Part shown: piece after piece, positions 34,330 through 62,936 of the stretch
Numbering within the stretch: the stretch's first letter is position 1
How the letters are laid out: every line of letters begins with the position of its first letter
Source: Gammaproteobacteria bacterium
GTDB lineage: Bacteria; Pseudomonadota; Gammaproteobacteria; CAJXQU01
DNA: 64,000 nucleotides
Reading direction: 5' to 3'
Assembly (NCBI GenBank): GCA_965238175.1
Contig: CBDEGZ010000003.1
Location: 608,001 to 672,000 of the forward strand
Notes under the pieces: generated by a model
What the model saw: only the letters and a program-made list of their open reading frames with translations
Database searches by the model: none
What the model was told of the DNA's origin: nothing
Made by a program: the position numbers and the translations under genes

Positions 34330-34374
34330 CAGAAACACTTTTCGGATCACTCTTTAACATCTTTGAAACATTAA

Positions 34375-34798: not shown

Positions 34799-37006
<2,208 letters not shown>

Positions 37007-37119
37007 TTATTTCTTTCAAGCTACTGTTGGTAAATTTTGGTTTTGCCGACAGGGGTTTTCTATAAATAATATAAATAATATGAATTATTTGAATCAGTAA
37101 TCTTATTTATAAGGATAGC

Positions 37120-39273: not shown

Positions 39274-39320
39274 GCTAAAAGAGAAATGAATATATTAAAA
39301 CGATCCGCATATTTCATACT

Positions 39321-41569: not shown

Positions 41570-42531
41570 GCATGAGTGAAATATTAATTATAGCCGAACA
41601 TCGGCAAGGCGAATTACGGCCGATGGTATTTGAATTGGTAGCGGTCGCTACGGATATAAAAAGAGATGGTGATAATATAGCCGTTGCTATTCTTGCAACT
41701 GAACCGCAAAAATATGTAGATGAATTAAGTGTTGAAGGAGTTGATGAGATTGTCACCATATCAGTGAGTTCTGAAGCCTTTCAACCGGATATTTATGAAA
41801 AAACAGTTCGTGTTCTGATTGAAGATCGTAAACCGTCCTTAGTATTGATCCCGCACAGTGTTGACGCGTGGGGTTATGCCCCAGCCCTGGGAGCAACAGG
41901 TGATTATGGTTTTGCAACGGATGTAATTAAGCTTCGTTACGAAGATGATGATCTTGTCGCCACTCGTGCGGCATACAAAGAAAAAGTTTATATGGATCTG
42001 GATTTTCCGAATAAGGAAACGGTTATTGTTACTGTCCGTGGTGGCACATTTAAGCCAATGGAAGGGTCAGCCTCTCCAGCGGTGACTATTTTTGCAGCAC
42101 CTGAAGTGAATGCGAGGTGCCAACATGTTAATTTTGTAGAGCCGGAAGACACTGGTGATGTGGATATTACACAGGCTGAATTTATGTTTTCTATTGGTAG
42201 AGGTATTGAAGAAGAAAGTAATGTTGAACAATTTGCAGAGTTGGCAGAAATGGTCGGTGCGACTTTGGGCTGCTCGAGACCCATTGCTGACAATGGTTGG
42301 TTACCCAAATCTCGACAGGTAGGACAGTCTGGAAAAACCGTATCAAGCTGTAAGCTTTATATTGCAAATGGCATTTCAGGCTCAGTGCAGCATATGGCGG
42401 GAATGAAACATGTGGAAGATATTGTTGCTATTAATACGGATCCTGAAGCATCTATTTTTACGGTTGCCAAGTATGGAATTGTTGCTGATATTTTTGATAT
42501 TGCAGAAGAATTACCTGTACATTTTGAATAA
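41566..42531 (+). CDS. etfA: Electron transfer flavoprotein alpha subunit
   Basis: GCSRPIADNGW, RQVGQSGKTV, GISGSVQHMAGM, AINTDPEASIF. Confidence 0.95.
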   Translation: MSMSEILIIAEHRQGELRPMVFELVAVATDIKRDGDNIAVAILATEPQKYVDELSVEGVDEIVTISVSSEAFQPDIYEKTVRVLIEDRKPSLVLIPHSVDAWGYAPALGATGDYGFATDVIKLRYEDDDLVATRAAYKEKVYMDLDFPNKETVIVTVRGGTFKPMEGSASPAVTIFAAPEVNARCQHVNFVEPEDTGDVDITQAEFMFSIGRGIEEESNVEQFAELAEMVGATLGCSRPIADNGWLPKSRQVGQSGKTVSSCKLYIANGISGSVQHMAGMKHVEDIVAINTDPEASIFTVAKYGIVADIFDIAEELPVHFE

Positions 42532-42553
42532 ATATTAAAAGAGAATAAAGATA

Positions 42554-43360
42554 ATGAATGCCGAGATAAAGACTAAGCCTGAACAGATTTCACAAATGAC
42601 CGATGTCCAGGCTGGGATCGATTTGAGAAGTCTTGAGATCCAGAGAGTTGGAATTAAAGATTTAACTTACCCTCTTATATTCGAGGATAAACAAGGCGTC
42701 CAACAAACCCGTGCAAATTGTAACCTCTATGTGAAATTAGCAGCGGATCAACGGGGTACGCATATGTCACGCTTTATTGATCTAATGAATCAACATTGTG
42801 ATGAGATGAGTATCGAAAAGTTTAATCTTTTACCTGAAGAAGTTGCAGATTTATTAGATGCCTCATCTAGTAGAGTTGAACTTAACTTTACTTTTTTCCG
42901 CTGGAAAGAAGCACCAATATCTGGGATCAATTCCGCAATGGATTATGATGTCACTCTAACAGGTGAATTTGATGGTGAAAAAAGCACAATAATAAAAGTT
43001 GCAGTGCCGGCTACTAGTTTATGTCCTTGTTCTAAAAAGATATCGGATTTTGGTGCGCATAATCAACGATCATTAATATCGATCACCGTAAAGGTTACTG
43101 AACCAATATGGATTGAAGATATTATCGAAATTGCAGAGCGTAATGCTTCGGCTGAAGTATTTGGATTAATAAAACGAGACGATGAGAAATATTTAACAGA
43201 ACATGCTTATAATAATCCAAAATTTGTAGAAGATATTGTTCGTGATGTTGCGCTTAACTTACAACAAGATAGTCGTATCTCTGGCTATATAGTGGAAACG
43301 GAAAACTTTGAATCGATCCATAATCATTCGGCATATGCGATGATTGACCAAATGAATTAG
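42554..43360 (+). CDS. folE2: GTP cyclohydrolase IB
   Basis: DVQ, RGTHMSRF, TSLCPCSK, GAHNQRS, NPKFVED, ESIHNH. Confidence 0.95.
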   Translation: MNAEIKTKPEQISQMTDVQAGIDLRSLEIQRVGIKDLTYPLIFEDKQGVQQTRANCNLYVKLAADQRGTHMSRFIDLMNQHCDEMSIEKFNLLPEEVADLLDASSSRVELNFTFFRWKEAPISGINSAMDYDVTLTGEFDGEKSTIIKVAVPATSLCPCSKKISDFGAHNQRSLISITVKVTEPIWIEDIIEIAERNASAEVFGLIKRDDEKYLTEHAYNNPKFVEDIVRDVALNLQQDSRISGYIVETENFESIHNHSAYAMIDQMN

Positions 43361-44114: not shown

Positions 44115-44123
44115 GTGATAATT

Positions 44124-45349
44124 TGTAGAAATTCAGATTTGATCTGACAGTTACCCAATTATCAGTAACCGACTGTCAGGTTAAGTTTAATTCACAAACT
44201 TTTCCTTCCAGATAGCTTGTCCGTCGATGAGTGTTTCCATCGGCGTCCTCCCGCAGCACATTTTGCCTTGGTGAGTTCGTTGAGTATTGTATTTGAGCAA
44301 CCATTCGTCAAGGTCGAGTTGCAGTTCATCAATCGATTGGTAAATTTTCTTACGCAAAGCGACTTGATAAAACTCATTGAGGATCGTCTTATGGAATCGC
44401 TCACAAATACCATTCGTCTGAGGTGATTTGACCTTGGTTTTGGTGTGTTCGATATTGTTCAACGCCATATAAAGCTGATAATCATGCTGGTCAGCTCGCC
44501 CACAATACTCCGTCCCTCTATCTGTCAAAATGCGCAACATAGGCAAACGTTGTTGTTCGTAGAATGGGAGGACGCGGTCATTGAGCATGTCAGCTGCCGT
44601 AATCGGTGTTTTAGTCGGGTACAGTTTCGCGTGAGCGACCTTGCTGTAAGTATCAACAAACGTTTGTTGATAAACCCGACCAATGCCTTTGAAAGTACCG
44701 ACATAGTAAGTATCTTGCGAGCCAAGATAACCAGGGTGTGCCGTCTCTATCTCGCCACAAGCCTCATCGTCGTCTTTTTTGCGTTCCATCGCCGCGACTT
44801 GAGACTCAGTGAGGATCAAGCCTTCACCAGCTACCTTATCAGACAATGCCTTCAGGCGATCTTTAAAGCAAGCAAGACCATGACGAAGCCAGATACAACG
44901 AACGCCACTGGGTGAGACAAATGTTCCCCGTTTGCGCAGCTCGTTACTGGTGCGCGTTTGACCATGTGCGGGCTCTTCCAGTGCATACTCGAGCACAACG
45001 GTTTCAATAGCCGGGTCGATTCTGTTTTTAAGATTTGGGGTACGCCGATTACGATCAAACAAGGCTTCTACACCGCCTTCATCAGCCGCTTCTTTGTAGC
45101 GATAAAATGTATCTCTGGACAAACCCATCATCTTGCAGGCTTTTGAGACATTGCCGAGTTCTTCAGCGAGATTGAGTAGACCAACTTTATGTTTTATAAC
45201 TTTGTCATTAGTATGAATCATGAGAGTTACCTCTTTGTGTTTTGATGTTTACGTTGCAGTTACATCAAAGCGGGTAACTCTCACTAAATCAAGCGTCGCT
45301 ACGCTCCGCTTGATTTAGTGATGTGTCAGATTGGGTCTAAACTTCTACA
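44124..45349 (-). mobile_element. IS481-family insertion sequence, copy 1
   Basis: TGT...ACA ends with imperfect TIRs (TGTAGAAATTCAGATTTGATCTGACA / TGTCAGATTGGGTCTAAACTTCTACA); duplicated at 62937. Confidence 0.93.
44187..45221 (-). CDS. IS481-family DDE transposase
   Basis: GNVSKAC HTH, GSQDTYY, LTDRGTEY, SPQTNGICERFHKT. Confidence 0.95.
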   Translation of the reverse strand: MIHTNDKVIKHKVGLLNLAEELGNVSKACKMMGLSRDTFYRYKEAADEGGVEALFDRNRRTPNLKNRIDPAIETVVLEYALEEPAHGQTRTSNELRKRGTFVSPSGVRCIWLRHGLACFKDRLKALSDKVAGEGLILTESQVAAMERKKDDDEACGEIETAHPGYLGSQDTYYVGTFKGIGRVYQQTFVDTYSKVAHAKLYPTKTPITAADMLNDRVLPFYEQQRLPMLRILTDRGTEYCGRADQHDYQLYMALNNIEHTKTKVKSPQTNGICERFHKTILNEFYQVALRKKIYQSIDELQLDLDEWLLKYNTQRTHQGKMCCGRTPMETLIDGQAIWKEKFVN

Positions 45350-48949: not shown

Positions 48950-50044
48950 CTACCTGACATATCCATGATCAACCCTGTAGGTGGGTAAAAAAGAGGCCGG
49001 TGCTAGAGATGTATCAAGATCGATATTATCGACGTTAGTTTCATCAACCAAAACAATTTTTGGTCCCGCGTGTTTCACGTAATCTTTTTCTTCAAGAACA
49101 CGAACTGCTTGAATGATAGATAATCTCCCTTGAGCAACCGGTGAATCTGTTGGGGCAGCTAAGATACGATGTCGTTTGATTCCACGGTAAATTCCGTGTG
49201 TTAGATAAGTAGAGAGTATTCCAATTTTATCTGTCAGTTTTTCTCTTCTTAAAATACTGACAGCCGCTTCAGCCGCTGGAGCATTGCCGACAATATAATC
49301 TATGTTTTGATTGGTTGCTTCTAATGCTTCTTGTATTAATGTCCGTTGGATTTCTTTCCCAGTGTCACCCCATCTCACATCGACAATATTAATTGCGCCA
49401 TTTGCAATACCACTACGGAATCCTTGATCGATGTAGGGAACCCATCCAGATCCTGTCGGTCCAGGTAGCCAACTTATATTGACTGGTGAACTTCCTTTAG
49501 GGTGTTTTTCAGCTAAATATTTACCAACACTTTTTCCCATGGAAAACCACGATACACCCGACTTGGCTGATATACCTTCATTACTAATATCGTTTACAGT
49601 GGCGAGTACAGGAATATTTTTTGCAATTTTAGTTAAAGTAGAAGATAAACCAGAAAATGAAACGGTACCCACGACTAAAGCATCAGTGGAATTTTTCACA
49701 CAATCTTCAACTTGTTTTTTTTGACGCTCTAAATTGGGGTAACCACCTGCATCAACTATTGCTAACGACAAGCCCAGTCGTTTAGCTTCTTCAACCATTC
49801 CATAATTAACACTCAACCAGTAGTTATCTTTCATGTGAGGGTAAGAAGCGCAAATCTTCCAATGCTTTTTTGCTGCCTCTATAGGTTGATACGCAACTAT
49901 TTTAGAAGGACTGTCAAAGTTGAAAGGTTCCTCTGGAACTTCTAATTCCCAGGTTTGTGCAAAAAGTTTTACAGTAATAAAGGTTAGCGCTATGACGAAT
50001 GAAAAGAAGATGGAACGCGAGTAGACTACAGGGAAGGAGTGCAT
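48950..50044 (-). CDS. torT: Periplasmic TMAO-binding sensor partner TorT
   Basis: WKICASYPHMKDNYWLSVNYGMVEEA, AGGYPNL, GVSW.SMG, WGDTGKEIQR, LSTYLTHGIYRG, APTD. Confidence 0.92.
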   Translation of the reverse strand: MHSFPVVYSRSIFFSFVIALTFITVKLFAQTWELEVPEEPFNFDSPSKIVAYQPIEAAKKHWKICASYPHMKDNYWLSVNYGMVEEAKRLGLSLAIVDAGGYPNLERQKKQVEDCVKNSTDALVVGTVSFSGLSSTLTKIAKNIPVLATVNDISNEGISAKSGVSWFSMGKSVGKYLAEKHPKGSSPVNISWLPGPTGSGWVPYIDQGFRSGIANGAINIVDVRWGDTGKEIQRTLIQEALEATNQNIDYIVGNAPAAEAAVSILRREKLTDKIGILSTYLTHGIYRGIKRHRILAAPTDSPVAQGRLSIIQAVRVLEEKDYVKHAGPKIVLVDETNVDNIDLDTSLAPASFLPTYRVDHGYVR

Positions 50045-50175
50045 AACTAACTAAGACTCTGAGTAATATTAGATGATTCTATACCTGCAGTTTATAAAGT
50101 AAAGTAACAAGGATGATAGGTTAAATTATTAATATTGATTAGTCTTACATCTTATAAAATAATTCTCGTTTATTT

Positions 50176-53124
50176 ATGTTTGCATTAAATAAAAAAATTG
50201 GTATTGGCGGCAAACTATTTCTGGCGTTTGGTTTTACGTTGACATTGATTTTAGCGGCTGCAATTTTTGGCTGGTTTAGTTTTGGTCAAGTTACTATTAA
50301 ACAGCAAGATGTGATTAACAGAGCAATTCCGGCAATGAAAGAGGCGCAGCAACTTGCAAAGATCAGTGCTAGTGTGAATGCAATGACCTCTGTCTTAGCA
50401 TCTACTATTTCCGAACAACAATATCTCGATATTCAAGCACGTCTTAATAGACAAAAAGATCGGCTAAAACATTTACTAAAGGATCTGGAGCATCATGGGT
50501 TTACTTCAAAAACGATTAAATCATTAAGAAAAACAGTAGAACGAATTACTGATAATCTTAATTTGCAAAATAGACAAGTCAGGTTACGTCTGGATGTGGG
50601 GAAAAAACGCGACATTGCAATTTCTAAAATGTTGACTGCTGCGGGAGATATTACCGATCTTTCCGGCTCACTTGTTGCAAATTCTGCATCAAGCACTACG
50701 GCTGTTGCATCAAGCTTATATGAGTTGATCGATAACCCTGAACACAATGATGCAGCTTTTGATGCACTGGATAGATTGATTGAACTAGATGTTGATTCAA
50801 TGGAGAGGATGTTTGAGCTACGCTTGAGTAGTGCTCTGATTAATGCACTAGTAACACAGCTTAGTAAGGAGACAGATATATCCAAGATCACATCTTTACA
50901 TAGAAATTTTATCAACCTATTGAAAATCATCACTCGTAGGATCAGTGAAATAAATGATCCAACTCGACAACATTTAGCAAAAAACTTTCTTATTAAACTA
51001 GAACATCATAGTAGTCCAGAAAATACAGAAAACGTTTTTACTTTACAACGCCGCCGTCTGATGAATAGTGAAGCATTACAACGATTACATATACAAGGGC
51101 TTGAAGCAGCAGCATCACTCAATACGATTGTCGGTGAAATGATAAAAGAAGGCAGTAACATCATTAATCAATCGACTTTAAATGTTGAAGAGGCTGTCGA
51201 CTCAGGTAAATTTAGCCTGGTAGCTACGGCCATTTTTTCGTTGATTTGTATTACGCTTTTTCTCTGGTTTTATATACAGAAAAAAATTGTTGATAGATTG
51301 GTGCAGCTTAAGTTTGCGATGAGTGAACTGGCAAATGGCAACTATGATCTATCGATTGATATGGATGGTTATGATGAGTTGTCATCCATGGCCGAAACGA
51401 TTCAAGTATTTAAAGAAAATGCAATTATTAAAGAGCGTTTAGAAAGAGTACAAGAAGCCACAGAACTTGAGCTCAGGCGACACAAAACACATCTAGAACA
51501 AGATATTGAAGAAAGGACAGAACAACTTAGGACAGCCAATAAACAGCTAGAGCAAGAAGCTAAACAACATGATAAAGCTAGAGATATTGCGGTCAAAGCA
51601 AATCGAGCCAAGACCGAATTTTTAGCGACAATGAGTCACGAACTGCGCACGCCAATGAGTGGGTTACTTGGCACTGTCAATTTACTTACAGATACAGAGT
51701 TGTCGCAACAACAGAAACATTACACTGAAATTGTTAATTCAGCAGGTCAAAGTTTACTTGAAATACTCAATGACTTGCTTGAATTTTCACAGATTGAGGG
51801 AGGAAAACTAGAACTGGGCCATATAGATTTTAGTCTGCAGCAATTGATGAATAATATGACTTCTCTGATGCAGACTTCTGTTGATAAAAAAGATATTTTT
51901 TTAGTAACAGATATTGATCCTAACGTGCCCAGGTTTCTAAATGGTGATCCTGGTAAGCTGCGGCAGATCTTATTGAACTTGATTGGAAACGCGATCAAAT
52001 TTACCGATCATGGGCAGATCGATGTCATTGTAAGACAACAAAAAAGGACAAGTAGTCATTCACATTTATTATTTGAAGTTAGAGATACCGGTATTGGTAT
52101 ACCTCTTGTAAGTCAAGATAATATTTTTGAACCTTTCACGCAGGTTAATTCGAGCATTTCACGTCAATATGGTGGGATTGGTTTAGGCTTGGCTATATGT
52201 AAACGTTTTATCCAGGCGATGGGGGGTGAGATAAATTGCAAAAGCGAGGAAAATAAAGGCACTATGATTAGTTTTTCATTAGCGCTTTTAATTGGTGATG
52301 ATAATAAATTGGAAGTTACCAGTCCTTTAGCTCACGAAGATTTTTTATTTTCACTAAAAATATTGTTAGTAGAAGATGATGAAGTTAATTGCATGGTTGC
52401 CAGATCCTATTTAGAAAAGATGGGTTGTCAGGTTGCAGAAGCTACTGATGGTTTTCAGGCGATTGAACTTGTAAATAAAGAAGTTTATGACGTGATACTT
52501 ATGGATATTGGATTGCCTGGTAAAGATGGTGTGGAGACGATGCGCGAGATAAGGCAACTTGGAGATCCTTATGTTGGTATTCCTGTCATTGCTATGTCAG
52601 CTCATGTTTTTAAAGAAGAAGTGAAAGGATATCTTGAGGCGGGCATGAATGGTTTTCTAGGTAAGCCGATAGATGTTGATCGTATGAAGAGTGTGTTGTT
52701 TGAAGTGGTTTATAGTAAGGATAAAACAGTGTCATTATTATCCTCTAAAACATTTAAAGAACAGGCAACAAGTTGTAGAGATATTTTGGTTGAAGATGTT
52801 GAGCAAATAGGTTTAGAAAAAACCAATGAACTTGTTGAATTATTTTTTAATTCATCACAGAAAACACTCAAAGATCTTAAACGAGCCATGGAGAATAAAG
52901 ATAATAAAGCGATAGGTGAAAGTGCGCATAAACTTAAGGGAGCGGCCTGCAATGTTGGACTTAATTTATTATCCCAATACGCAATGGAGCTTGAGTTGAG
53001 TGTCGATACACAACATGCGGAATTTCAGCAATATTTTGATCACATAAACCAGGTTTATAAAGACTCTTGTTTGTTATTGAAAAGTGTTTTTGAAGATATC
53101 TATCAGAGACAAAAAGCGGGTTAA
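50176..53124 (+). CDS. torS: Hybrid sensor kinase TorS
   Basis: IGGKLFLAF, LDRLIELDVD..ERM.ELR periplasmic motif, HAMP, FLATMSHELRTP, receiver and HPt (AHKLKGAA); between torT and torR. Confidence 0.92.
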   Translation: MFALNKKIGIGGKLFLAFGFTLTLILAAAIFGWFSFGQVTIKQQDVINRAIPAMKEAQQLAKISASVNAMTSVLASTISEQQYLDIQARLNRQKDRLKHLLKDLEHHGFTSKTIKSLRKTVERITDNLNLQNRQVRLRLDVGKKRDIAISKMLTAAGDITDLSGSLVANSASSTTAVASSLYELIDNPEHNDAAFDALDRLIELDVDSMERMFELRLSSALINALVTQLSKETDISKITSLHRNFINLLKIITRRISEINDPTRQHLAKNFLIKLEHHSSPENTENVFTLQRRRLMNSEALQRLHIQGLEAAASLNTIVGEMIKEGSNIINQSTLNVEEAVDSGKFSLVATAIFSLICITLFLWFYIQKKIVDRLVQLKFAMSELANGNYDLSIDMDGYDELSSMAETIQVFKENAIIKERLERVQEATELELRRHKTHLEQDIEERTEQLRTANKQLEQEAKQHDKARDIAVKANRAKTEFLATMSHELRTPMSGLLGTVNLLTDTELSQQQKHYTEIVNSAGQSLLEILNDLLEFSQIEGGKLELGHIDFSLQQLMNNMTSLMQTSVDKKDIFLVTDIDPNVPRFLNGDPGKLRQILLNLIGNAIKFTDHGQIDVIVRQQKRTSSHSHLLFEVRDTGIGIPLVSQDNIFEPFTQVNSSISRQYGGIGLGLAICKRFIQAMGGEINCKSEENKGTMISFSLALLIGDDNKLEVTSPLAHEDFLFSLKILLVEDDEVNCMVARSYLEKMGCQVAEATDGFQAIELVNKEVYDVILMDIGLPGKDGVETMREIRQLGDPYVGIPVIAMSAHVFKEEVKGYLEAGMNGFLGKPIDVDRMKSVLFEVVYSKDKTVSLLSSKTFKEQATSCRDILVEDVEQIGLEKTNELVELFFNSSQKTLKDLKRAMENKDNKAIGESAHKLKGAACNVGLNLLSQYAMELELSVDTQHAEFQQYFDHINQVYKDSCLLLKSVFEDIYQRQKAG

Positions 53125-53843
53125 TTAATGTCTGCTGTGAATTGGTAGCCTTCTCCATGAACAGTAATAATTATTTCAGGGTTTGCTGGATCAGTTTCCA
53201 ATTTTTGCCTTAATTTTCTTACCAGTACATCAATGGTACGATCAGAAGGGTTCCATTCCCGATGATTTATATATTTCATAATTTGATCACGGTTAAGTAC
53301 GTTTCCTGGGTGAGTTGTGAACAAATTCATCAATTCAAACTCACCACGCGTTAATTTGACACGGTGATCAGATTTATTTTCTAGTTGACGTTTTTTCAGG
53401 TCAAAACGCCAGTCTAGAAAATGACGTGTTTTATTTTCGTTCTTTATCTTTAAATCAACACTACCTGTGGTTCGACGGAGTAAGTTTTTTACTCGGATCA
53501 ACAATTCACGCATATTAACAGGTTTAGTAACATAGTCATCAGCGCCAATTTCAAGACCGACGATCCGATCAATATCCCCAGTTCTGCCTGTCACTAAAAT
53601 AATACCGATGTCGGAGTTTGCTCGTACTTCTCGCGCAAGAATTAAACCGTCCTCATCAGGGAGGTTTATATCAAGTAATAATAGATCAATTTGAAATTGA
53701 TCTATTAATCTACGCATTTCTTGGCCATTTTCAGCTTGGCTAACGATAAAACCTTCAGCTTCGAAATAGCTGGCCAAACGCATTCGTGTTACTGGTTCAT
53801 CTTCAACCATCAATAAATGTGCTTGGGTAGAATCATTCGTCAT
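53121..53843 (-). CDS. torR: OmpR-family response regulator TorR
   Basis: VEDEPVTRMRLASYF, LLDINLPDEDGL, IVGLEIGADDY, DRTIDVLVRKLR; ATG at 53843. Confidence 0.9.
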   Translation of the reverse strand: MTNDSTQAHLLMVEDEPVTRMRLASYFEAEGFIVSQAENGQEMRRLIDQFQIDLLLLDINLPDEDGLILAREVRANSDIGIILVTGRTGDIDRIVGLEIGADDYVTKPVNMRELLIRVKNLLRRTTGSVDLKIKNENKTRHFLDWRFDLKKRQLENKSDHRVKLTRGEFELMNLFTTHPGNVLNRDQIMKYINHREWNPSDRTIDVLVRKLRQKLETDPANPEIIITVHGEGYQFTADIN

Positions 53844-54037
53844 ATTGATGAATTTTTGCCTAAATAATCGCAAATAGAAATACAATTTTGAAGATATAAG
53901 GTCTAGTTTTATTATTTTATATTTGTACTCAATTTTCAAAAAGATTAAATTTAAAAAATCTAAGCTGAAAAGTGACTGAACTAACTTTACCAGCTATTGC
54001 ATTCAGACAGAAGTTTGAACTAACTCAGCATTATTTT

Positions 54038-54100
54038 TGTTAACAACCCTTAACAAAACTCCTACAAATAAGATCCAGGTATTGGCATCTCATTCACATC
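54038..54100 (+). promoter_or_regulatory. Candidate TorR direct-repeat boxes
   Basis: TTAACAA (54040), TTAACAA (54050), CCTACAA (54061), TTCACAT (54093); 10-11-bp phasing typical of OmpR-family sites. Confidence 0.45.
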
Positions 54101-54210
54101 ACTTTGATAGTGTTCTTGATAACCGAAATTGTATCGATTTTATTAATACAACATAAGGCTATACGAGTTTTTATTTAACTTTATATTTAAATGTAAAAAG
54201 GAGCTAAGTT

Positions 54211-55749
54211 ATGAAAAAAATGCTACCTGTTGTTACAACGGCACTGGTCATATTTGCATGTGGGCCTCAAAAGTCCTATGCAGAGCCAACCGTTGACAAT
54301 ATAACGGATGGTTCACCCTATTATTATACAGGAGCCTCAACTGATCCTATAGAAAATGGCGTTGGTGGCAAAGCGACTACAGATTCTGGGATTAATCATC
54401 TACCTGTCTTTCACGGACATATGCAAACTAATAATACTTATCGATTTGTTAATGTTGCTGAGCAAGTTTTCACCATGATTGGTGATGGTAAACATGGTCT
54501 CTGGCGTGTCCAGGATAACGGCACTATCCGTGAATATATTACTGATGAAGCTGAAGCTTCAGGTGATGGTCTTGATGATGGTTTGAGTAACGATGATCCA
54601 GCTAATTTATCAGTACTGGAAGATTATTACACGCATTATGATGTATCTGCGAGCTTTGGTTCGATCGGTGGTGGTGGTTATAAATCTATCGGTGGTTTCA
54701 ATGGTCAGACTGTTAACGCTGATGGTCATAAAACATTTGTAGATCTACCAATTTTCCATCCAAAATATGGTGGTAAATATGATAATCATCCACCAATTGA
54801 TCTAGCTAGTTACTATTGCACAATGTCTGGGCCAAGTTACGACAAGGCAAGACAGGCAATGGATTTTGCTTTTTCACAACCAGGTGCAGGGCATGACAAT
54901 ATTGGACCATTAGGTATTCGGGCTGGCTTGGACATTACTGAAAACTATACCAGGATTATTAGACTAAACTCACTCCCAGATGCCAAAATCTGGGCAAATA
55001 GTGATACTCGTAATGAAGCGAGGTGGCAACAAATAGATACATCTAAAACTAAAGCGGAAATTTATTTGGTTGAACGTCCGTTTTTTAATGAAGACTATCT
55101 TTTCATTACCGTCGTGTTTGATGATGAGAAACGCAGGAAAGAACATTCTTATGTACGCCCGGATGGTGTCTATTATGAACATCTGATGGAACGCAAGAAT
55201 AATGGTGAAAAACTGTACTTTGATACTAGACTCCAACAAAGACCAATATTTAATCTTCTAAAAGAAAGAAGTAGTGGTCGTCTCTTTAGATCGAGGGCGC
55301 GAGTCGATGGTTTCCCTCTCTATGGTGTACATCACCCTGGTGGTCTGACTGTCAGTAATGGTGCTTGCCCAGGAATGGGTGGTGACTTTGGTGAAACTTA
55401 TTATGGATCTGCATGGCCAACTAATTATCAAGAAATCACGCCACTGTGTGATGGTATCGTAATTGATATTAAGTTGTTTGCAAATCTAGATGGTGTTAAC
55501 TGGGATAATGAAAGTAAAAATCTGGCAAATAACGTTGGTACTGTAAACGGAGATACTACTACATTAGCTCCAGGTGATCTTGTGAAAAACTACACTACTG
55601 TACCGGGTAATTACGGTGATTATAGTGCAGCAAACACTGATCCATACTTGACGATTAAAGGACTCGTTAATCATGAAGCCTTCACAACAGATGGCACTGA
55701 AGAACTTAAGTTTCCTTCGTCGAATGGTCAAGTTGAAGTTAATGAGTAA
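54211..55749 (+). CDS. Unknown secreted protein, divergent from torR
   Basis: AAGGAG RBS; signal peptide (SYA|EP, or lipobox-like FAC); no recognised domain. Confidence 0.8.
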   Translation: MKKMLPVVTTALVIFACGPQKSYAEPTVDNITDGSPYYYTGASTDPIENGVGGKATTDSGINHLPVFHGHMQTNNTYRFVNVAEQVFTMIGDGKHGLWRVQDNGTIREYITDEAEASGDGLDDGLSNDDPANLSVLEDYYTHYDVSASFGSIGGGGYKSIGGFNGQTVNADGHKTFVDLPIFHPKYGGKYDNHPPIDLASYYCTMSGPSYDKARQAMDFAFSQPGAGHDNIGPLGIRAGLDITENYTRIIRLNSLPDAKIWANSDTRNEARWQQIDTSKTKAEIYLVERPFFNEDYLFITVVFDDEKRRKEHSYVRPDGVYYEHLMERKNNGEKLYFDTRLQQRPIFNLLKERSSGRLFRSRARVDGFPLYGVHHPGGLTVSNGACPGMGGDFGETYYGSAWPTNYQEITPLCDGIVIDIKLFANLDGVNWDNESKNLANNVGTVNGDTTTLAPGDLVKNYTTVPGNYGDYSAANTDPYLTIKGLVNHEAFTTDGTEELKFPSSNGQVEVNE

Positions 55750-55787
55750 ATGATCATGAGGTTGTGTAAATAGCAATATTTACGGAC

Positions 55788-55819
55788 AGCCCGGTTGATT
55801 TTTCAGCCGGGCTATTTTT
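55788..55819 (+). terminator. Rho-independent terminator
   Basis: AGCCCGGTTGA-loop-TCAGCCGGGCT-ATTTTT. Confidence 0.8.
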
Positions 55820-56204: not shown

Positions 56205-57473
56205 ATGAGTATTACACGTAGAAAATTTATAAAATCAACTGCAACTGGTGCAGCGCTTGCCAGTGTCGCAGCTGGTTTGCCTTTTAACGTATTTGCAGAA
56301 GGGAAAACGATAAAAATAGGTTTGAATATTCCAGAAACTGGGGACTATGCTCCTTGGGGTCTTCCTGGTCGATACGGTTGTGAAATCGTGGCTAAAAATT
56401 TGAATGATGCTGGCGGCGTGAAGATAGGTGATCAAACATACATGATTGAACCGGTTAGTTATGATCATGGTTATGATATTGAAAAAGCGATCACAGGATA
56501 TAAGCAACTTTCTGGTGACGATTCGTCAATGATTATGATGCTTGGTGGTGGTACAACTGGCGCGGTTGTTGATCGTGCAGCCAGACAAAAAAAATTACTA
56601 ACCACCTTATTACCAAGTGATTTAACGCCAGATACACCTAATCTTATTGCACCTAGTGAATCACACCCACTTTATAACGTGACGGGTGTTGATTGGTTGG
56701 CAGCAAACTTTCCTAAAGCTAAAACAGCAGTTATCTGTACTACCAATGATATCGAATACGGTCAACAATCTGCGGCAATTTATCAAGCTGCATTTGAAGT
56801 TAATGGTATCGAAGTTCTGGATACAAACTTCCATGGTTTTGATGACACAATTTTACCCGCAGTCGTTAGTGGACTTCTCGCTAAAAAACCAGATATTTTT
56901 TGTATGGCAACGGATGTTTATACGACACCATTGGTCGTGGCATTACGTGATCAAGGTTTTAAAGGGAAAATTGTCTCTTGTACGCTTGATGGCTACGGTG
57001 ATTTGATCGACAAAGTGGGCAAAGAATATGTTGAAGGTATTGTCTTTCAATTCCCTGATTTTGATGATCCAGCCTTGATCGCAAAAGAAGATAGTGATTT
57101 TCCTGATCCAAAAGGTTTCTGGGATGCGTTCCAGGCTCAACATCCTGGTGAATGGTCTGCTGTTGCATGGCAATATCCAGCAATCATGGTTGCATGGATT
57201 GAGGCAGCACAAGCGGCGGGTTCAATAGATCAAATGGAAGTATTGAAAGCATGGAAAGCAAATCCAAATCCACCTCACTCATTTGGTAATGCAATCTGGT
57301 GGGGTTCACAACTATATGGACAGGATAACTGTGTTGTAGGCGATTGGCCTGTCGTTACTATGCAAGATGGCCGAGCACGTATTGTTGAGTTCCGTAGCGT
57401 GGCAGATTGGGTCTCTAAACATAACGATGTAATAAAAGCCAAAATGCAAGCATTGGATCTGCGAACTGTTTAA
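56205..57473 (+). CDS. HAAT (LivK-like) ABC substrate-binding protein with Tat signal
   Basis: TRRKFIK twin-arginine motif; IKIG...TG.YAPWG, LNDAGGV. Confidence 0.88.
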   Translation: MSITRRKFIKSTATGAALASVAAGLPFNVFAEGKTIKIGLNIPETGDYAPWGLPGRYGCEIVAKNLNDAGGVKIGDQTYMIEPVSYDHGYDIEKAITGYKQLSGDDSSMIMMLGGGTTGAVVDRAARQKKLLTTLLPSDLTPDTPNLIAPSESHPLYNVTGVDWLAANFPKAKTAVICTTNDIEYGQQSAAIYQAAFEVNGIEVLDTNFHGFDDTILPAVVSGLLAKKPDIFCMATDVYTTPLVVALRDQGFKGKIVSCTLDGYGDLIDKVGKEYVEGIVFQFPDFDDPALIAKEDSDFPDPKGFWDAFQAQHPGEWSAVAWQYPAIMVAWIEAAQAAGSIDQMEVLKAWKANPNPPHSFGNAIWWGSQLYGQDNCVVGDWPVVTMQDGRARIVEFRSVADWVSKHNDVIKAKMQALDLRTV

Positions 57474-57495
57474 GTAGATCGATTATAAGCAGATT

Positions 57496-57524
57496 AAAAG
57501 GGGAGGTTTTCCTCCCCTTTTTTT
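57496..57524 (+). terminator. Hairpin/terminator after the SBP gene
   Basis: AAAAGGGGAGG-TTTT-CCTCCCCTTTTTTT. Confidence 0.75.
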
Positions 57525-57564
57525 ATCTAACTTATAAATAATTATAATAAAGGCAGGTGATGTT

Positions 57565-58434
57565 GTGGAATTGTTCCAACAATCAATTTTTAACAGTCTT
57601 ATGCAGGGTGGTTTTTTTGCACTCTGGGCAGTAGGACTAGTATTGATATTTGGTGTTATGGGGGTTGTAAACTTTGCTCATGGTGAGCTGGTGATGGCCG
57701 GTGCATTTACAGTCTGGGTTTTACATGCACAAAATGGTGTGCCGTATTTTGTAGCCATACTCGCTGCAATTATTCTTGCATCATTTATCGGCTTACTCAT
57801 GGAGCGGTTTTTATTCCGGCCAAATAGGGAGGATCCACTTGCCGGATTAATTTGTTCTATTGGCGTACTTTTCATTCTTCAGGTAATTGCGCACGAAGTT
57901 GGCGGTACCGGCCCGGCAAAACAAGTGGCTTCGCCTTTTGTTGGTTTTATTGATGTTACCGAAACTTTGCGCGTGCCTGTTCAAAAAGCATTTAGCTTTG
58001 GTGTTTCCACAGTATCTCTTGTGATTTTATGGTTTTTCCTGACGCGTACTAAATTAGGTTGGGCGTTACGAGCTGTTGCTTTAGATCGCGAAGCATCGGC
58101 ACTACAAGGTATCAATATTAATAAGATTTCTATGCTAGCCATTGGTGTCGGTACCGCATTGGCTGGTTTAGCAGGTGCATTGATGGCACCGCTACAAAAT
58201 ATACATTCACACATGGGACACAACGTTATAATTACGGCTTTCATCGTAACGATTGTTGGTGGTGTAGGGAGTCTCTCAGGTGCAGTAGCCGCTGCTTTTC
58301 TTTATGCATTTTTCTACACGTTCGTGTCAGCTTATTTTGACGGCACGATAGCAACAATCTGTGGATTATTGATCATGGTATTAGTACTGATAATCAAACC
58401 CACTGGCATTATGGGCGTGAAGGTGAGTGAATAA
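57565..58434 (+). CDS. HAAT ABC permease (LivH-like)
   Basis: GLVLIFGVMGVVNFAHGE, GWALRA, IVGGVGS. Confidence 0.9.
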   Translation: MELFQQSIFNSLMQGGFFALWAVGLVLIFGVMGVVNFAHGELVMAGAFTVWVLHAQNGVPYFVAILAAIILASFIGLLMERFLFRPNREDPLAGLICSIGVLFILQVIAHEVGGTGPAKQVASPFVGFIDVTETLRVPVQKAFSFGVSTVSLVILWFFLTRTKLGWALRAVALDREASALQGININKISMLAIGVGTALAGLAGALMAPLQNIHSHMGHNVIITAFIVTIVGGVGSLSGAVAAAFLYAFFYTFVSAYFDGTIATICGLLIMVLVLIIKPTGIMGVKVSE

Positions 58435-59416
58435 CATGAGTTCAATGAAAAGTGTAATTGGTCTGGTTGTTCTTTTGATCGCATTGGTCGTCATTCCTCA
58501 TTTTGTTCAGTATAAGCACCAGGATATTTTGATCTTTCTGGTTATAAATGTATTGGTGGTTGTGAGTTATCGATTAGTCACGCTAACAGGCGAATGGTCT
58601 CTGATTCATATCGTTATGATGGGTATTGGTGCCTATGCAAGTGCTTTGTTATCTAAGTCCCTGGGTATGCCATTTTGGATAACAATGCCTTTAGCTGGTT
58701 TTACAGCTGCGGCTGTTGCAGCAATATTATGTTTCCCTTTATTTAGAATGACTCAATTTTATTTTCTGATCGGATCGTTCGCTGCTGGCGAAGCGATACG
58801 GTTGTGTTGGGTCTATTTCATTAAGCCATTTGGGGGCACCAGTGGCGTTAAGAGTATTCCACCTCCCGAGCTTGGTGCTATTGATTTCTATGAAGCGATT
58901 CCGTATTACTACCTGACTTTGATCGTTGTCATCATCTCGTTATTTATTTTGTATCGAATAGAGAGATCACGTGTTGGTTTAACTTTGCATGCAGTGCATT
59001 GGAAAGCACCACTGGCAGAATCGGTCGGTGTTGATACCTGGAAATATCGCTCGTTGGCTTTTATCGTAGGTTCTTTTTTTGTCGGTATTGCAGGTGCGTT
59101 AAAGGTTCATTATCTGGGTGTTGTAACGCCTAATCAATTTGGGATCGGAGCAATGGTATTTGTTCTGATATGGGTAATCGTAGGGGGATATGCAACATTC
59201 GCTGGCCCTATTATTGGTGTCGTCCTGCTGACAATATTTGATGAATCAATTCGAAGTTTTGAAGTAATTCGGCCAGCAATTTATGGATCTGTACTTATTT
59301 TATCGATCCTCTTTTTACCGACTGGTTTAGAAAGCGTACCCGCAAAAATAAGGGCCTGGTTTGGGATTGGTTCAAAGCCCCAAGAACCGACATTATCAGA
59401 AAAAATTGATCATTAA
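58427..59416 (+). CDS. HAAT ABC permease (LivM-like)
   Basis: TGEWSL.H, GIGAYASA, SRVG, AESVGVD, IVGG...GP. Confidence 0.9.
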   Translation: MNNMSSMKSVIGLVVLLIALVVIPHFVQYKHQDILIFLVINVLVVVSYRLVTLTGEWSLIHIVMMGIGAYASALLSKSLGMPFWITMPLAGFTAAAVAAILCFPLFRMTQFYFLIGSFAAGEAIRLCWVYFIKPFGGTSGVKSIPPPELGAIDFYEAIPYYYLTLIVVIISLFILYRIERSRVGLTLHAVHWKAPLAESVGVDTWKYRSLAFIVGSFFVGIAGALKVHYLGVVTPNQFGIGAMVFVLIWVIVGGYATFAGPIIGVVLLTIFDESIRSFEVIRPAIYGSVLILSILFLPTGLESVPAKIRAWFGIGSKPQEPTLSEKIDH

Positions 59417-59463
59417 TTAGAATAAATTATTAATTAAAATAAAAAAACAATAGCGAGAAATTT

Positions 59464-60219
59464 GTGTCAATACTACAAGTTGAAAATGTAACCAAGCAAT
59501 TTGGTGGACTGACTGCTTTGAATGATGTCAGTTTCCAGGTTGAGAAAGGTTCAATTCATGGTCTGATTGGCCCTAATGGTGCAGGTAAGAGCACTATGTT
59601 TAAAAACATTGCTGGTTTTTATACTCCGACGAAAGGCAGTATTAAATATCAGGGTGAAAATATCGCAGGTAAGAAACCTTATACAATTGCTGAAATGGGG
59701 ATTGTTCGCACCTTCCAGGAGACAACATTGTTTCAGGAGCTTACGGTTTTTGAAAATGCTTTGGTTGGTTCACATATAAAGGCTCGCACGGATATTTTTT
59801 CAGCTATTTTTCGTCTTGATAAGCAGAAACAAGAAGCCGCATCTGAAAAGGTGATGGAAGTTCTCGATTTTATGGGACTAAGTGATCGTAAAGATCAGCT
59901 TGCTTCAGGTTTACCTTTGGGCTCACAACGTGCACTGGCAATATCCATTGCTCTGGTATCGGAACCAAAATTAATGCTGATGGATGAACCCTTTGCCGGT
60001 ATGAATCCTGAAGAGACCAATCATATGATGGATTTGACTCAAAAAGTCAGAGAGTCTGGCATAACAATCGTACTTGTTGAACATGATATGAAGGCAGTAA
60101 TGGGATTGTGTGATTATCTAACTGTTTTGAATTTTGGACAATTATTAGCAGAAGGAACACCCGAGGAAGTACGACATGACGATAAGGTGATCGAAGCTTA
60201 TCTGGGTGGGGTAAAATAA
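59464..60219 (+). CDS. HAAT ABC ATPase (LivG-like)
   Basis: FGGLTAL, GPNGAGKST, RTFQ, DEPFAGMN, VEHDM, AYLG. Confidence 0.92.
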   Translation: MSILQVENVTKQFGGLTALNDVSFQVEKGSIHGLIGPNGAGKSTMFKNIAGFYTPTKGSIKYQGENIAGKKPYTIAEMGIVRTFQETTLFQELTVFENALVGSHIKARTDIFSAIFRLDKQKQEAASEKVMEVLDFMGLSDRKDQLASGLPLGSQRALAISIALVSEPKLMLMDEPFAGMNPEETNHMMDLTQKVRESGITIVLVEHDMKAVMGLCDYLTVLNFGQLLAEGTPEEVRHDDKVIEAYLGGVK

Positions 60220-60929
60220 TGTTGCTAGAAGTAAACGATATTCATGTTCACTATGGTCAAGTGGCTGCCCTTAAAGGGATTTCATTACAAGTTGAAGAGG
60301 CTGATTTTATAACTTTGATAGGTTCGAACGGGGCCGGCAAGAGTACGACCTTACGTGCGATATCAGGTCTTGATCATCCAAGTGCGGGAGTCATTGTTTT
60401 CGATGGTCAACGCATAGAAAAAATGTCTCCCGATAAAATCTTGAAAATGGGTATCGCTCATGTACCAGAAGGACGCCGTGTATTTAAAGATCTGACGGTG
60501 ACTGAGAATCTTCGTCTTGGTGCATTTACCCGTAATGATAAGGAACAAATAGAAAAAGATCTGGAAAATACTTTTGTTCGTTTCCCAAGATTGCGTGAGC
60601 GTAAGGATCAATCTGCCAGAACGATGAGTGGTGGTGAACAGCAAATGGTGGCTATTGGCCGCGCACTTATGTCTAAACCAAGATTGCTAATGTTAGATGA
60701 ACCTTCTCTAGGTTTGGCGCCAATTATTGTGCAGGAAATAGCGAGAATTCTGATCGAAATAAATAAACAACAAGACGTGGCTATTGTTCTGGTTGAACAG
60801 AATGCGGAGCTCGCGTTAGAAATAGCAAGACATGCTTATGTACTGGAAACCGGCAAAGTTTCACTTGAAGGAGAAGCCAGTGGTCTTATGGATAATGAGC
60901 ACGTAAGACAAGCTTACCTCGGCATGTAA
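60219..60929 (+). CDS. HAAT ABC ATPase (LivF-like)
   Basis: GSNGAGKST, VPEGRRVF, MSGGEQQM, DEPSLGLAP, VEQNA. Confidence 0.92.
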   Translation: MLLEVNDIHVHYGQVAALKGISLQVEEADFITLIGSNGAGKSTTLRAISGLDHPSAGVIVFDGQRIEKMSPDKILKMGIAHVPEGRRVFKDLTVTENLRLGAFTRNDKEQIEKDLENTFVRFPRLRERKDQSARTMSGGEQQMVAIGRALMSKPRLLMLDEPSLGLAPIIVQEIARILIEINKQQDVAIVLVEQNAELALEIARHAYVLETGKVSLEGEASGLMDNEHVRQAYLGM

Positions 60930-61012: not shown

Positions 61013-62116
61013 ATGGCAAGTCCAAGACAATCAGCACTCGCATCACGGCACAGAGCACTAGGTTCAGAACTTGGTGACTGGAATGATATGGATGTGGCGT
61101 GGGAATACGATCAGGATGTTAATCTGGAACACAAAGCAGTGCGTACAACTGCAGGTTTGTTTGATGTATCCGGTTTAAAGAAGATCCACATCACAGGGCC
61201 AGATGCACTCGCCGTTGCTGATCATGTCTGCACACGAGATCTAACAAAAATCTATCCTGGCAAATCGGCTTATGGAATTATTCTTAATGACGATGGCATG
61301 ATCACTGACGACTGCATCATGTTTCACATCAAGCCTAATGATGTATTGATGGTACATGGCGGTGGTACGGGCATGGAGCAGTTAATGAAATCTGCAGAAG
61401 GAAAGAATGTCAAAATAGAATTTGATGACGACATGCATGATATTTCTCTTCAAGGACCAAAAGCGGTAGATTTTCTCGATCAATTTGCAGATTGTAATTT
61501 ACAAGATCTAAAATATTTCCATCAGGTTCCGACAACATTGTTTGGTCATCATTGCATGATCTCACGCACAGGTTACTCAGGTGAAAGAGGCTACGAAATT
61601 TTCGCTAAGGCTGATGATATTGTGCCGATCTGGGATGCGATTCTAGAGAATGGAAAGTCTGAAGGGATCATACCTTGTTCATTTAACTGCATTGATATGA
61701 TCCGTGTGGAAGCAGCACTGTTATTTTACCCATATGATATGAGTGAAGAAACTAATCCCTGGGATGTGGGCTTAGGTTTTGCCGTTGCTAAAAATAAGCC
61801 TGGCGATTATCGCGGTAAAGCGGCATGTATGGCCGCTATGGGTAAAGAAACTACAACAACCTGGGGGATAATTGCTGATGCCGATACCGCAGTTGATGAA
61901 GGCGCAGAAATATTTGATGGCGATAAGAAAATTGGTTTTGTTACAGCCCCTTGTTATTCAACGATTATGAACGAATCAATCGCAATGGCTCGTGTCGATA
62001 AGGAGTATGCCAAGGAGGGTATTGCCCTGCAGTTAAAAGGCGATAATCTGTCATGTAATATAACAACTGCGACGATGCCGATTCTTGATCCGGAAAAGGG
62101 TAAACGAACTACTTAA
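61013..62116 (+). CDS. GcvT-family aminomethyltransferase, DmmD-like (THF-dependent C1 capture)
   Basis: SAL..RHRALGS.L.DWN.M..AW.Y, GLFDVSGLKK, TRDL.KIYPGKS, SRTGYSGERGYEIF; N-terminus resembles dimethylamine-pathway DmmD. Confidence 0.8.
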   Translation: MASPRQSALASRHRALGSELGDWNDMDVAWEYDQDVNLEHKAVRTTAGLFDVSGLKKIHITGPDALAVADHVCTRDLTKIYPGKSAYGIILNDDGMITDDCIMFHIKPNDVLMVHGGGTGMEQLMKSAEGKNVKIEFDDDMHDISLQGPKAVDFLDQFADCNLQDLKYFHQVPTTLFGHHCMISRTGYSGERGYEIFAKADDIVPIWDAILENGKSEGIIPCSFNCIDMIRVEAALLFYPYDMSEETNPWDVGLGFAVAKNKPGDYRGKAACMAAMGKETTTTWGIIADADTAVDEGAEIFDGDKKIGFVTAPCYSTIMNESIAMARVDKEYAKEGIALQLKGDNLSCNITTATMPILDPEKGKRTT

Positions 62117-62176: not shown

Positions 62177-62936
62177 GTGAATAAAACGGAAGATATTATT
62201 AGCGGTTTACATACAGCAAGGAAAGATGGTGATCATCATGGATGATGAAGATCACGAAAATGAGAAGGCGATCTGCTAATAGCTGCAGATTATATGATAC
62301 CTGAAACGATCAATTTCATGGCTCATCATGGATGAGGGTTGATCTGTTTGACATTGATGCAGCAACGTTGTCAGCAATAATAGTTCAGAATTCAGTACCA
62401 ACTTTACTTTATCAATAGAGCAGTTCGAGGTGTTACCACTGGCATTTCAACGGCTGATCGGGCTACAACAATTCAAACTGCCGTTGCGACCGATGCGAAA
62501 CCAAAAGGCATCGTACAATCTGGGTATACCCATGCCACTTGGAAGTGCAGGTATCAGTGGCTCTATCATTCTTGCTGGCAAGGCATGTTTCGCCGTAAAG
62601 GGGCTTGTTAGCTGCTTGGCCCTTTTCAAGAAACACAACGTTGTCCAGCGAAAATGATAGGGTCACCCAAACGACTGCATGAACGCAGGAGATAGAATGC
62701 TGTCTGGAACATGCATCGAGGGCGAGTCCAGGCGTCCACACAACGGCGTTAGCCTACTTGAAAATGGCACCATAGCACGGCATCCTGGTTTGGAAAAATT
62801 TGCAAAAGAGCATGATCTGAAAATTGGAACGATAGCTGATCTCATCGAATATCGGATCAAGAAAGAACAAACAGTTTGTAGAAAACCCAGACATCACTAC
62901 CGACCGACCTTAGCGAATTCAATTTATTTGTTTATG
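62177..62936 (+). pseudogene. ribB: ribB/ribBA pseudogene with stops, frameshifts, an internal foreign segment and IS481 interruption
   Basis: Fragments GKMVIIMDDEDHENE, GDLLIAAD, INFMAHHG*GLICL, GVTTGISTADRATTI, ENGTIARHPGLEKFAKEHDLKIGTIADLIEYR. Confidence 0.85.

Follow-up and report, generated by a model that had tools for sequence, protein, structure and literature searches.

A TorT-TorS-TorR system facing a new family of exported proteins in a methylamine-consuming gammaproteobacterium, with a possible role in trimethylamine N-oxide conversion

The Tor regulatory genes, gene X and the upstream repeats

Trimethylamine N-oxide (TMAO) and the methylamines are major marine currencies of nitrogen and carbon as well as precursors of climate-active gases, and the known bacterial fates of TMAO are molybdenum-dependent respiration (TorA-type) and cytoplasmic demethylation by Tdm after TmoX-mediated uptake. 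Here a locus is described in which the regulatory genes torT, torS and torR face a gene, named X in this work, for an exported protein of an uncharacterised family. The locus lies in a stretch of 64,000 nucleotides, referred to as the window (contig CBDEGZ010000003.1 of assembly GCA_965238175.1, positions 608,001 to 672,000 of the forward strand), from a gammaproteobacterial genome of 3.35 Mb that is 97.7% complete.

The three regulatory genes are intact, as a preliminary description made from the sequence alone had stated, the ORFs of the locus lie at the positions given there, and all three products pass their NCBIfam cut-offs. The gene torT (48950-50044, minus strand) is an open reading frame (ORF) of 364 amino acids for the predicted periplasmic TMAO-binding partner of TorS, with 422 bits to NF008185 (cut-off 200), 358 bits to the stricter TIGR02955 (cut-off 310) and 271 bits to the TorT of Vibrio parahaemolyticus (PDB 3o1h). 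The first of these models also lets sugar-type binding proteins pass. A second TorT match in the genome (C3:2473113, 292 bits), which has a different kinase and a LuxR-type regulator as neighbours, was rejected as a second Tor system and corresponds to the binding protein of an ATP-binding cassette (ABC) transporter. The torS gene (50176-53124, plus strand) encodes a hybrid sensor kinase of 982 amino acids (TIGR02956, 805 bits, cut-off 676.5) with all five of the expected Pfam domains (TorS_sensor_domain, HisKA, HATPase_c, Response_reg and Hpt), and scores below the enterobacterial model NF008543 (432 bits versus a cut-off of 982). The torR gene (53121-53843, minus strand) encodes an OmpR-family response regulator of 240 amino acids (NF008034, 299 bits, cut-off 275); its listed ORF (53121-53939) is over-extended, the ATG at 53843 being the start that fits the family model. 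By protein families, the Tor module of this genome is of the TorT/TorS/TorR type.

Divergent from torR, across an intergenic region of 367 bp, lies X (54211-55749, plus strand), which encodes a protein of 512 amino acids. A ribosome-binding site, GGAG, is found at 54200-54203, 7 nt 5' of the ATG, and its position favours the start at 54211; the database copy of X has 509 amino acids, so its annotators may have chosen the second ATG. The N-terminus (MKKMLPVV...) reads as a Sec-type signal peptide (54211-54282) that ends in SYA, with EP opening the mature protein at 54283, and its Ala24 is kept in at least 90% of 39 relatives. The translation has neither a twin-arginine (RR) motif nor CxxCH, and no molybdopterin oxidoreductase domain was found with Pfam or NCBIfam, even at E<=10. 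The cysteines are C203, C386 and C413, besides Cys17 in the signal peptide, and the histidine motifs are HLPVFHGH, FHP..NHPP and VHHP. Downstream, an intrinsic terminator (55788-55819, plus strand) has a stem at 55788-55813 of 11 pairs, 7 of them G-C, followed by a T-run; about 390 bp separate it from the start of the next gene. X is predicted to form a single-gene transcript. In the features that it listed for the gene, the phased repeats considered below included, the preliminary description is borne out. A sigma-70-like promoter candidate lies at 54082-54111 (plus strand; TTGGCA, 18 nt, GATAGT; 9 of 12 matches), a tentative placement given that the promoter scan overall found no more sites than in shuffled sequence.

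Two tandem tor-box-like decamers, TGTTAACAAC and CCTTAACAAA, are found upstream of X at 54038-54057 (plus strand), with TTAACAA cores at 54040-54046 and 54050-54056 in 10-bp phasing. The repeat TTAACAAnnnTTAACAA has a single exact match in the 3.35-Mb genome, which is the site upstream of X; two copies with one mismatch, one 36 bp before a major facilitator superfamily transporter gene and the other beside DUF2461 and cytochrome c genes, were unconvincing as TorR sites. About 40 bp 3' of the decamers lies a proximal element, CTCATTCACA (54089-54098, plus strand), which aligns with GTTCAC/GTTCAT of other tor-linked loci and includes T, T and A at 54093, 54094 and 54096 that are invariant in the alignment of the window with those loci. 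The alignment of six complete torTSR loci with the window gave a consensus containing CTGTTAACAA, TTTTAACAA and CGTGTTCAC. The tor boxes of Salmonella and E. coli are given in PMC9239176 as CTGTTCATAT and CCGTTCATCC; the consensus decamer CTGTTAACAA matches 7 of the 10 bases of CTGTTCATAT, and the proximal element shares a TGTTCA core with these enterobacterial boxes.

The relatives of X were collected by scanning one genome per species, which gave 115 proteins, and 80 of their loci were kept. Genes for torT, torS and torR adjoin X in six of them (L009, L011, L012, L021, L032 and L034), and in L010 a torR-like gene (69% identity) lies beside X at a contig end; the idea that homologues might sit beside torTSR had been raised for verification and holds for these loci. 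In a mismatch scan of 1 kb upstream of X, the repeat TTAACAAnnnTTAACAA recurs in plus orientation with zero to two mismatches in L009, L010, L012, L032 and L034, the window having it exactly, and with three mismatches in L011 and L021. The 73 loci without tor genes gave matches at three mismatches only, at background density (289 per 1.38 Mb). As estimated from the locus sequences, the repeats lie about 130-280 bp from the start codon of X, or of the cupin gene where one precedes X, and between about 13 and about 350 bp from torR. The repeat upstream of X in L010 is exact, though the torR-like gene sits downstream of X. Because the repeats are conserved and keep a steadier distance to X than to torR, this comparative evidence points to TorR very probably controlling X.

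The X family, its genomic neighbourhoods and its tor-linked clade

The proposal that X belongs to a new family was upheld by the searches made. No match was found in Pfam or NCBIfam, and a profile of X found none among PDB sequences at E<=10. All of the 294 relatives retrieved by a word-indexed search, many of them from marine metagenomes, are unnamed or 'hypothetical' and lack any Pfam domain, and in a profile search of 1.84 billion representatives no more than 204 proteins reached E<=0.001, with fragments making up many of them. When 39 family members were compared with Pfam at E<=10, noise alone came back (TraG_N in 4 of 39, best E 0.031), without any recognised cofactor-binding motif for X, and the ESM Atlas gave nothing usable for the queries made. 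The confident AlphaFold model of X, made from 125 sequences, has a predicted local distance difference test score (pLDDT) of 92.6 and a predicted TM-score (pTM) of 0.91; Foldseek found no match for it in the PDB (best E 0.11). X has no sequence match to methylamine dehydrogenase (MADH), quinohaemoprotein amine dehydrogenase (QHNDH), LodA or copper amine oxidases in Pfam and PDB, and none of these was listed by the fold searches. Likewise, the searches run gave no similarity to Tdm (NF053776, with a DUF1989-type domain and GCV_T), TmoX, MauA/B or MbnP.

Within the family, conservation is dense. The window X scores 687.7 bits over its full length against a profile built from 39 relatives, and the 125 sequences, down to 37% identity, share 42 invariant columns, including H95, H375, C203, C386 and C413, with H63, H183, H193 and H374 kept in at least 90%. 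The conserved motifs include GKHGLWR, YCTMS, VHHP, ACPxxGGD and PLCDG. Judged by sequence and by the predicted model, X is a member of a compact, new and uncharacterised family without a solved-fold match, and its conserved His and Cys fit a metalloenzyme without proving one. No published description of the X family, or of a Tor system facing such a gene, was found in the literature as far as its text was available.

The genomes that carry X are mostly those of methylotrophs (Methylophaga, Methylotenera, Methylophilus, Methylobacillus, Paracoccus, Hyphomicrobium and Methylonatrum), together with uncultured marine and sponge-associated Gammaproteobacteria and a few Vibrionaceae, Algicola and Actinomycetota. 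Carriers in culture include Methylophaga thiooxydans DMS010, Methylotenera versatilis, Paracoccus species and Grimontia. Neighbours were taken as the genes within five of X, from ORFs of a simple greedy caller clustered with BLASTP; this caller put the X genes of five high-GC loci on the wrong strand, and their neighbours were counted by position regardless. An exported EutQ-like cupin of 146 amino acids is found in 56 of the 80 loci, in 53 of them directly upstream of X on the same strand. Two Cys are invariant in the cupin (e.g., L028:8510-8950), and a YTYxYD motif is conserved; the protein is probably not a classical metal cupin, since it has no conserved His. A predicted complex of X with the exported cupin of L028, run without controls, scored 0.00, which speaks neither for nor against such a pairing. 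Directly downstream of X, 27 loci have a TorF-family porin (TIGR02001) and 17 have an exported protein in which CxxCH occurs twice and which weakly matches MauG/MbnH. This di-haem protein of about 560 amino acids (L014-L030, L037, L054-L056, L064; e.g., L014:11454-13139) has no Pfam match at E<=0.001 and matches MauG/MbnH over 38-70 residues only (for MauG, 38 residues, E 2e-4), and could represent a new branch within the di-haem peroxidase/MauG superfamily. Its place beside X fits a redox reaction. With so many invariant His, Cys, Asp, Glu, Arg and Tyr residues, and with this partner in 17 loci, X looks more like a typical catalyst; the di-haem gene is absent from the window and its genome. 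Regulators near X include a LuxR-type protein of 264 amino acids in 22 loci and a PAS-XRE protein of 460 amino acids in 19.

Several arrangements place X relatives among genes for methylated amines. In L015, L026, L029 and L037 a cupin-X-di-haem operon is flanked on one side by N-methylglutamate dehydrogenase genes and on the other by amt, mgsB-like and gmaS-like genes. In 9 of the 80 loci a GCV_T homologue is found no more than about 3 kb from X, and in 3 trimethylamine dehydrogenase (TMADH) lies within 10 kb. The cupin-X-porin/di-haem operon, so far unstudied, is widespread among methylotrophs.

A quick maximum-likelihood tree of X (79 rows, L039 with an internal stop and the fragment L082 having been dropped) joins the window and six tor-linked loci in a clade with a support of 100 in the SH-like approximate likelihood ratio test (SH-aLRT), which also includes L013, from a 5-kb contig. 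The cupin is missing throughout this clade. L034, in which torR is divergent from cupin-X, is placed outside the clade among Methylophilaceae sequences, so the Tor-X pairing arose at least twice. L009 has nearly the whole arrangement of the window (ABC transporter, torTSR, X and TMADH cluster), and its ABC transporter beside torT is 73-80% identical to that of the window. L010 and L012 belong to one metagenome-assembled Pseudomonadales genome with two diverged X paralogues and repeats at each, and in L012 a phage-type integrase follows on the downstream side of X. In L011, L021 and L032, two genes on the strand of X come directly after it, one for a BNR_2 protein (sialidase-like beta-propeller) of 387 amino acids and one for a protein of about 210 amino acids without a Pfam match.

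Gene content for TMAO and methylated amines

The window has no torA, torC or torD, as had been noted, the search for torD being confined to the window. Genome-wide, the torA model (TIGR02164) reached at best 101.7 bits versus a cut-off of 1465, torC (TIGR02162) had no matches, those of Tdm (NF053776) were confined to the C-terminal GCV_T half and a tmoX-like query found nothing. The suggested searches thus gave no torA and no full-length tdm. Of the five largest molybdoenzyme matches of the genome, one is a formate dehydrogenase, one is NapA/Fdh-like and three are DmsA-like proteins of about 700 amino acids, and none of them falls in the TorA/BisC or DmsA families. The DmsA-like paralogues (G000:C3:391746-393870, 1972896-1975016 and 3232692-3234755) match the DmsA/YnfE model best, with an alignment that begins near model position 45, the Tat-signal region being seemingly absent.

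A methylamine cluster on the plus strand of the window (33236-43360) encodes a TorF-family porin, TMADH, a membrane iron-sulphur (Fe-S)/CCG protein, a HEAT/LRV-repeat protein, etfB, etfA and folE2. The porin gene (33236-34084), about 20 kb from X, adjoins the TMADH gene (34811-37006, plus strand), whose product matches PDB 1DJN along its whole length with 1301.5 bits. The interval from the TMADH gene to etfBA (37120-40778) encodes a membrane Fe-S protein of 717 amino acids with CCG domains and a HEAT/LRV-repeat protein of 485 amino acids; both are kept with TMADH in L009 and may form a route from the electron transfer flavoprotein (ETF) to quinone. The window also has an Amt-type transporter (25853-27304). 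Downstream of X is an ABC transporter (56205-60929, plus strand) with a Peripla_BP_6 binding protein, two permeases and two ATPases, for which a link to X is conjectural; the binding protein (56205-57473) has a twin-arginine signal (TIGR01409, 20.3 bits versus 16.7), which is unusual for this transporter class. It is followed by a stand-alone GCV_T folate-binding aminomethyltransferase (61013-62116, plus strand; 237 bits to the C-terminal half of NF053776). Outside the window, a cluster for the N-methylglutamate pathway is found at C3:192850-204229. A single TMADH-like gene is found in the genome at E<=1e-150, which means that there is no paralogue for dimethylamine dehydrogenase (DMADH). By its gene content, the window organism is a consumer of methylated amines and not a TMAO respirer.

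Similar contents were found in five further tor-linked genomes (G001-G005), all of them metagenome-assembled, so that their gene absences are weak evidence: torA reached at best 92.8 bits versus the cut-off of 1465, Tdm was represented by the GCV_T half only and the tmoX-like query found nothing. A TMADH orthologue, 73-86% identical to that of the window, is present in all five, which makes six of six for the genomes of the Tor clade examined, window genome included. Four of the five also have TMADH paralogues at 63% identity, G001 having none. In a sample of 400 genomes of the class, X was found in 7, counting the unpublished G301; it was found in neither genome of the same genus, nor were TorT or TMADH with the queries used.

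A different output of a Tor system was found in the gammaproteobacterial genome G078, one of the TorT-positive members of the class sample, where torT-torS-torR face a tmoX-like gene, ABC genes and tdm (L095, G078:C2:79000-90879, together with G078:C2:77640-79898). Here torR is divergent from the tmoX-like gene, whose product has 392.5 bits to PDB 4XZ6, a structure given as TmoX with TMAO bound in PMC8918994. The tdm gene has 1182 bits versus a cut-off of 1100, three tandem TTCAC boxes lie in the torR-tmoX intergenic region, TorT is 57% identical to that of the window, and no torA match is found at E<=1e-100. This locus of G078 resembles an assimilatory Tor regulon assembled from known TMAO genes, an arrangement which argues that Tor systems do drive such genes. 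In terms of gene order, X fills in the genomes without these assimilatory genes the same slot as tmoX-ABC-tdm in G078.

Among the remaining features of the window, an IS481-family element of about 1.23 kb gave 64 BLASTN rows genome-wide (E<=1e-20), nearly all of the 60 listed covering the full length at 98.9% identity or more. A pair of directly oriented copies (44116-45340 and 62929-64000) brackets NAD-salvage genes, torTSR, X, the ABC transporter and GCV_T; given the abundance of the element, this bracketing is unremarkable, and a composite transposon over 45.3-62.9 kb was rejected. A single ORF of 3331 amino acids (12423-22418, plus strand) has about 50% G+C, against about 40% around it.

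Proposed function of X, alternative readings and known systems

Here it is proposed, with confidence about evenly divided, that X, under activation by TorR, acts in the periplasm as an enzyme of a new family, converting TMAO and feeding TMADH-type catabolism. The Tor two-component system would have been rewired from respiration to assimilation: TorT would bind periplasmic TMAO, the presumed inducer, TorS would phosphorylate TorR, and TorR would bind the decamers at 54038-54057 and the proximal box near 54092, activating the single-gene X transcript. The Sec-exported X would then convert TMAO in the periplasm, the likeliest reaction being its reduction to trimethylamine (TMA), which would be taken up and oxidised by the TMADH and ETF encoded nearby and further metabolised through the N-methylglutamate pathway. 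The parts of this proposal are of unequal strength. It is likely that X works in the catabolism of TMAO or methylated amines, and somewhat probable that it is an enzyme. That it reduces TMAO to TMA is offered tentatively, demethylation to dimethylamine and formaldehyde being nearly as plausible. The reduction is favoured because all Tor-clade genomes examined keep TMADH, because no TMAO importer or Tdm was found in them and because the window genome lacks a second TMADH-like gene for dimethylamine. Similarly speculative is the idea that X founds a class of periplasmic N-oxide reductases that work without molybdenum, or of other TMAO-converting enzymes, with an unseen fold and switched on by TorTSR, which would let TMADH-type methylotrophs and sponge or marine symbionts use TMAO without TorA, TmoX or Tdm.

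Several observations weigh against this proposal. Induction by TMAO, binding by TorR and catalysis by X are all predictions from sequence, and the absences of known TMAO genes in the five further Tor-linked genomes count for little in metagenome assemblies. To our knowledge, molybdenum-free reduction of TMAO has no biochemical precedent, the neighbours of X in the window include no gene for an electron donor, and the cupin partner of X is absent from both the window and its genome. The three DmsA-like molybdoenzymes (303, 287 and 219 bits; cut-off 777.7) are possible N-oxide reductases. Within the wider family, 73 of the 80 loci have non-Tor regulators (LuxR-type or PAS-XRE), so that the inducer need not be TMAO for most of its members, and in the class sample a TMADH orthologue at 70% identity or more is found in only two of the seven X genomes (that of the window and G301), which indicates that the function of X does not depend on TMADH across the family. 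This last count also tempers the link to the neighbouring methylamine genes that the preliminary description had drawn, a link otherwise sustained by the relatives that adjoin TMADH, the N-methylglutamate pathway, GCV_T, Amt and TorF-family porins.

Another reading, rather unlikely though the strongest of the alternatives, is that X keeps the TorR control and acts as a periplasmic demethylase or oxidase of methylated amines, converting TMAO to dimethylamine and formaldehyde or oxidising dimethylamine or monomethylamine. A non-redox demethylation needs no electron donor and suits a single-gene transcript, while the operon setting in L015, L026, L029 and L037 suits a periplasmic step that yields monomethylamine or ammonium, and the di-haem partner, with its weak MauG match, could accept electrons or remove the peroxide of an oxidase. 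Four of the seven X-bearing genomes of the class sample, each at least 99% complete, are without a close TMADH. However, the TMADH held by the six Tor-clade genomes would be unneeded for TMAO if X made dimethylamine, and no similarity to quinoproteins, copper amine oxidases or Tdm was detected in X. The set of TMADH-like genes can be read both ways: the window genome, without a DMADH paralogue, has no gene assigned to its dimethylamine step, which favours this reading, and the lack in both that genome and G001 of the 63%-identity paralogue, possibly a dimethylamine dehydrogenase, counts against it.

It is improbable that X is non-enzymatic, that is, a periplasmic protein for the binding, scaffolding or uptake of methylated amines which works with TorF-type porins, Amt or the ABC transporter. 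The TorF-family porin downstream of X in 27 of the 80 loci, the Amt and ABC transporters nearby, the partner cupin without conserved His and the lack of a recognised cofactor-binding motif in X would agree with such a role; but the adjacent ABC transporter has its own binding protein, no periplasmic binding-protein fold stands out among the fold matches listed for X (best E 0.11 overall), and its invariant residues together with the di-haem partner are more like those of a catalyst. Even less probable is that the Tor-like sensor of the Tor-X clade recognises a ligand other than TMAO, with X serving, for example, metal handling or envelope stress and the methylamine context due to hitch-hiking in an island. 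This would be in keeping with the 292-bit sugar-type match to NF008185 in the window genome, with a copper-type P-type ATPase near X in L047 and L076 and with a region rich in insertion sequences that is absent from both genomes of the same genus. However, TorT passes TIGR02955 as well (358 versus 310), TorS has the TorS sensor domain, the system of G078 with its 57% identical TorT faces tmoX and tdm, and methylamine genes recur beside X in several unrelated arrangements. Negative autoregulation of torR is also mediated by the tor boxes of E. coli. That the boxes, lying in a shared intergenic region of 367 bp, serve this autoregulation only, with X accidentally adjacent and expressed independently of TorR, is very improbable in view of their steadier distance to X, of the repeat upstream of X in L010, where the torR-like gene is downstream, and of the repeated origin of the Tor-X linkage.

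Taken together, the proposal of a TorR-activated TMAO-converting enzyme draws on a new exported family with tor linkage and conserved repeats, which is the part of the earlier interpretation that stands, whereas the TMAO-converting metalloenzyme itself is still conjecture. Neither torA nor torC turned up elsewhere in the genome, X was assigned to no unrelated known family and the linkage to tor genes recurs in its relatives. The window genome and five others have kept the TMAO sensor and are missing every known TMAO enzyme or importer that was searched, with X in place. If X converts TMAO, it would represent a new enzyme family in the methylated-amine cycle, would explain the access of TMADH-type methylotrophs to TMAO and would provide a new metagenomic marker; were the novel-enzyme reading true, it would be a third, undescribed biological route of marine TMAO turnover. 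Whatever the chemistry of X, the gene arrangements indicate that Tor systems are re-used for assimilation, their output being either X or tmoX-tdm. As a regulatory module TorTSR is known; its output X and the assimilatory use of a Tor system are undescribed in the literature searched, as far as its text was available.

Compared with TorTSR-torCAD of E. coli and Salmonella, the locus has the same three regulators, a torR divergent from its presumed target and tandem decamers in 10-bp phasing upstream of that target, related to CTGTTCATAT. In contrast, the target X has no Tat signal, molybdopterin domain or haem motif, the genome has no torA or torC match, and the core of the box is TTAACAA here and TTCATA there. 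A TorR target that is not a reductase is represented by torF (TIGR02001) of Shewanella oneidensis, where PtorF is listed in PMC9948233 as a TorR-dependent, TMAO-responsive promoter; TorF-family porins are found directly 3' of X in 27 of the 80 loci, but X itself is not of the TorF family, and none of its family and fold searches pointed to a porin. As for the MauG/MbnH di-haem enzymes, which act on periplasmic substrates (methylamine dehydrogenase, MbnP), the likeness lies in the weakly matching di-haem protein after X in 17 of the 80 loci, which hints at a redox partner or maturation enzyme of X; unlike in those systems, the match covers 38-70 residues, the window genome has no such gene and X is unlike MauA/B and MbnP.

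The TmoXWV and Tdm route of Ruegeria pomeroyi and SAR11 is similar in using TMAO as a nutrient and not as an electron acceptor, and in G078 tmoX-ABC-tdm faces torTSR as X does here. X is, however, predicted to be periplasmic, whereas Tdm is cytoplasmic, and it has no sequence similarity to TmoX or Tdm. Finally, the TMADH/ETF pathway of Methylophilus methylotrophus is matched in the window by a full-length TMADH and etfBA; the known pathway starts at TMA and has no TMAO step, and X would be an added front end to it.

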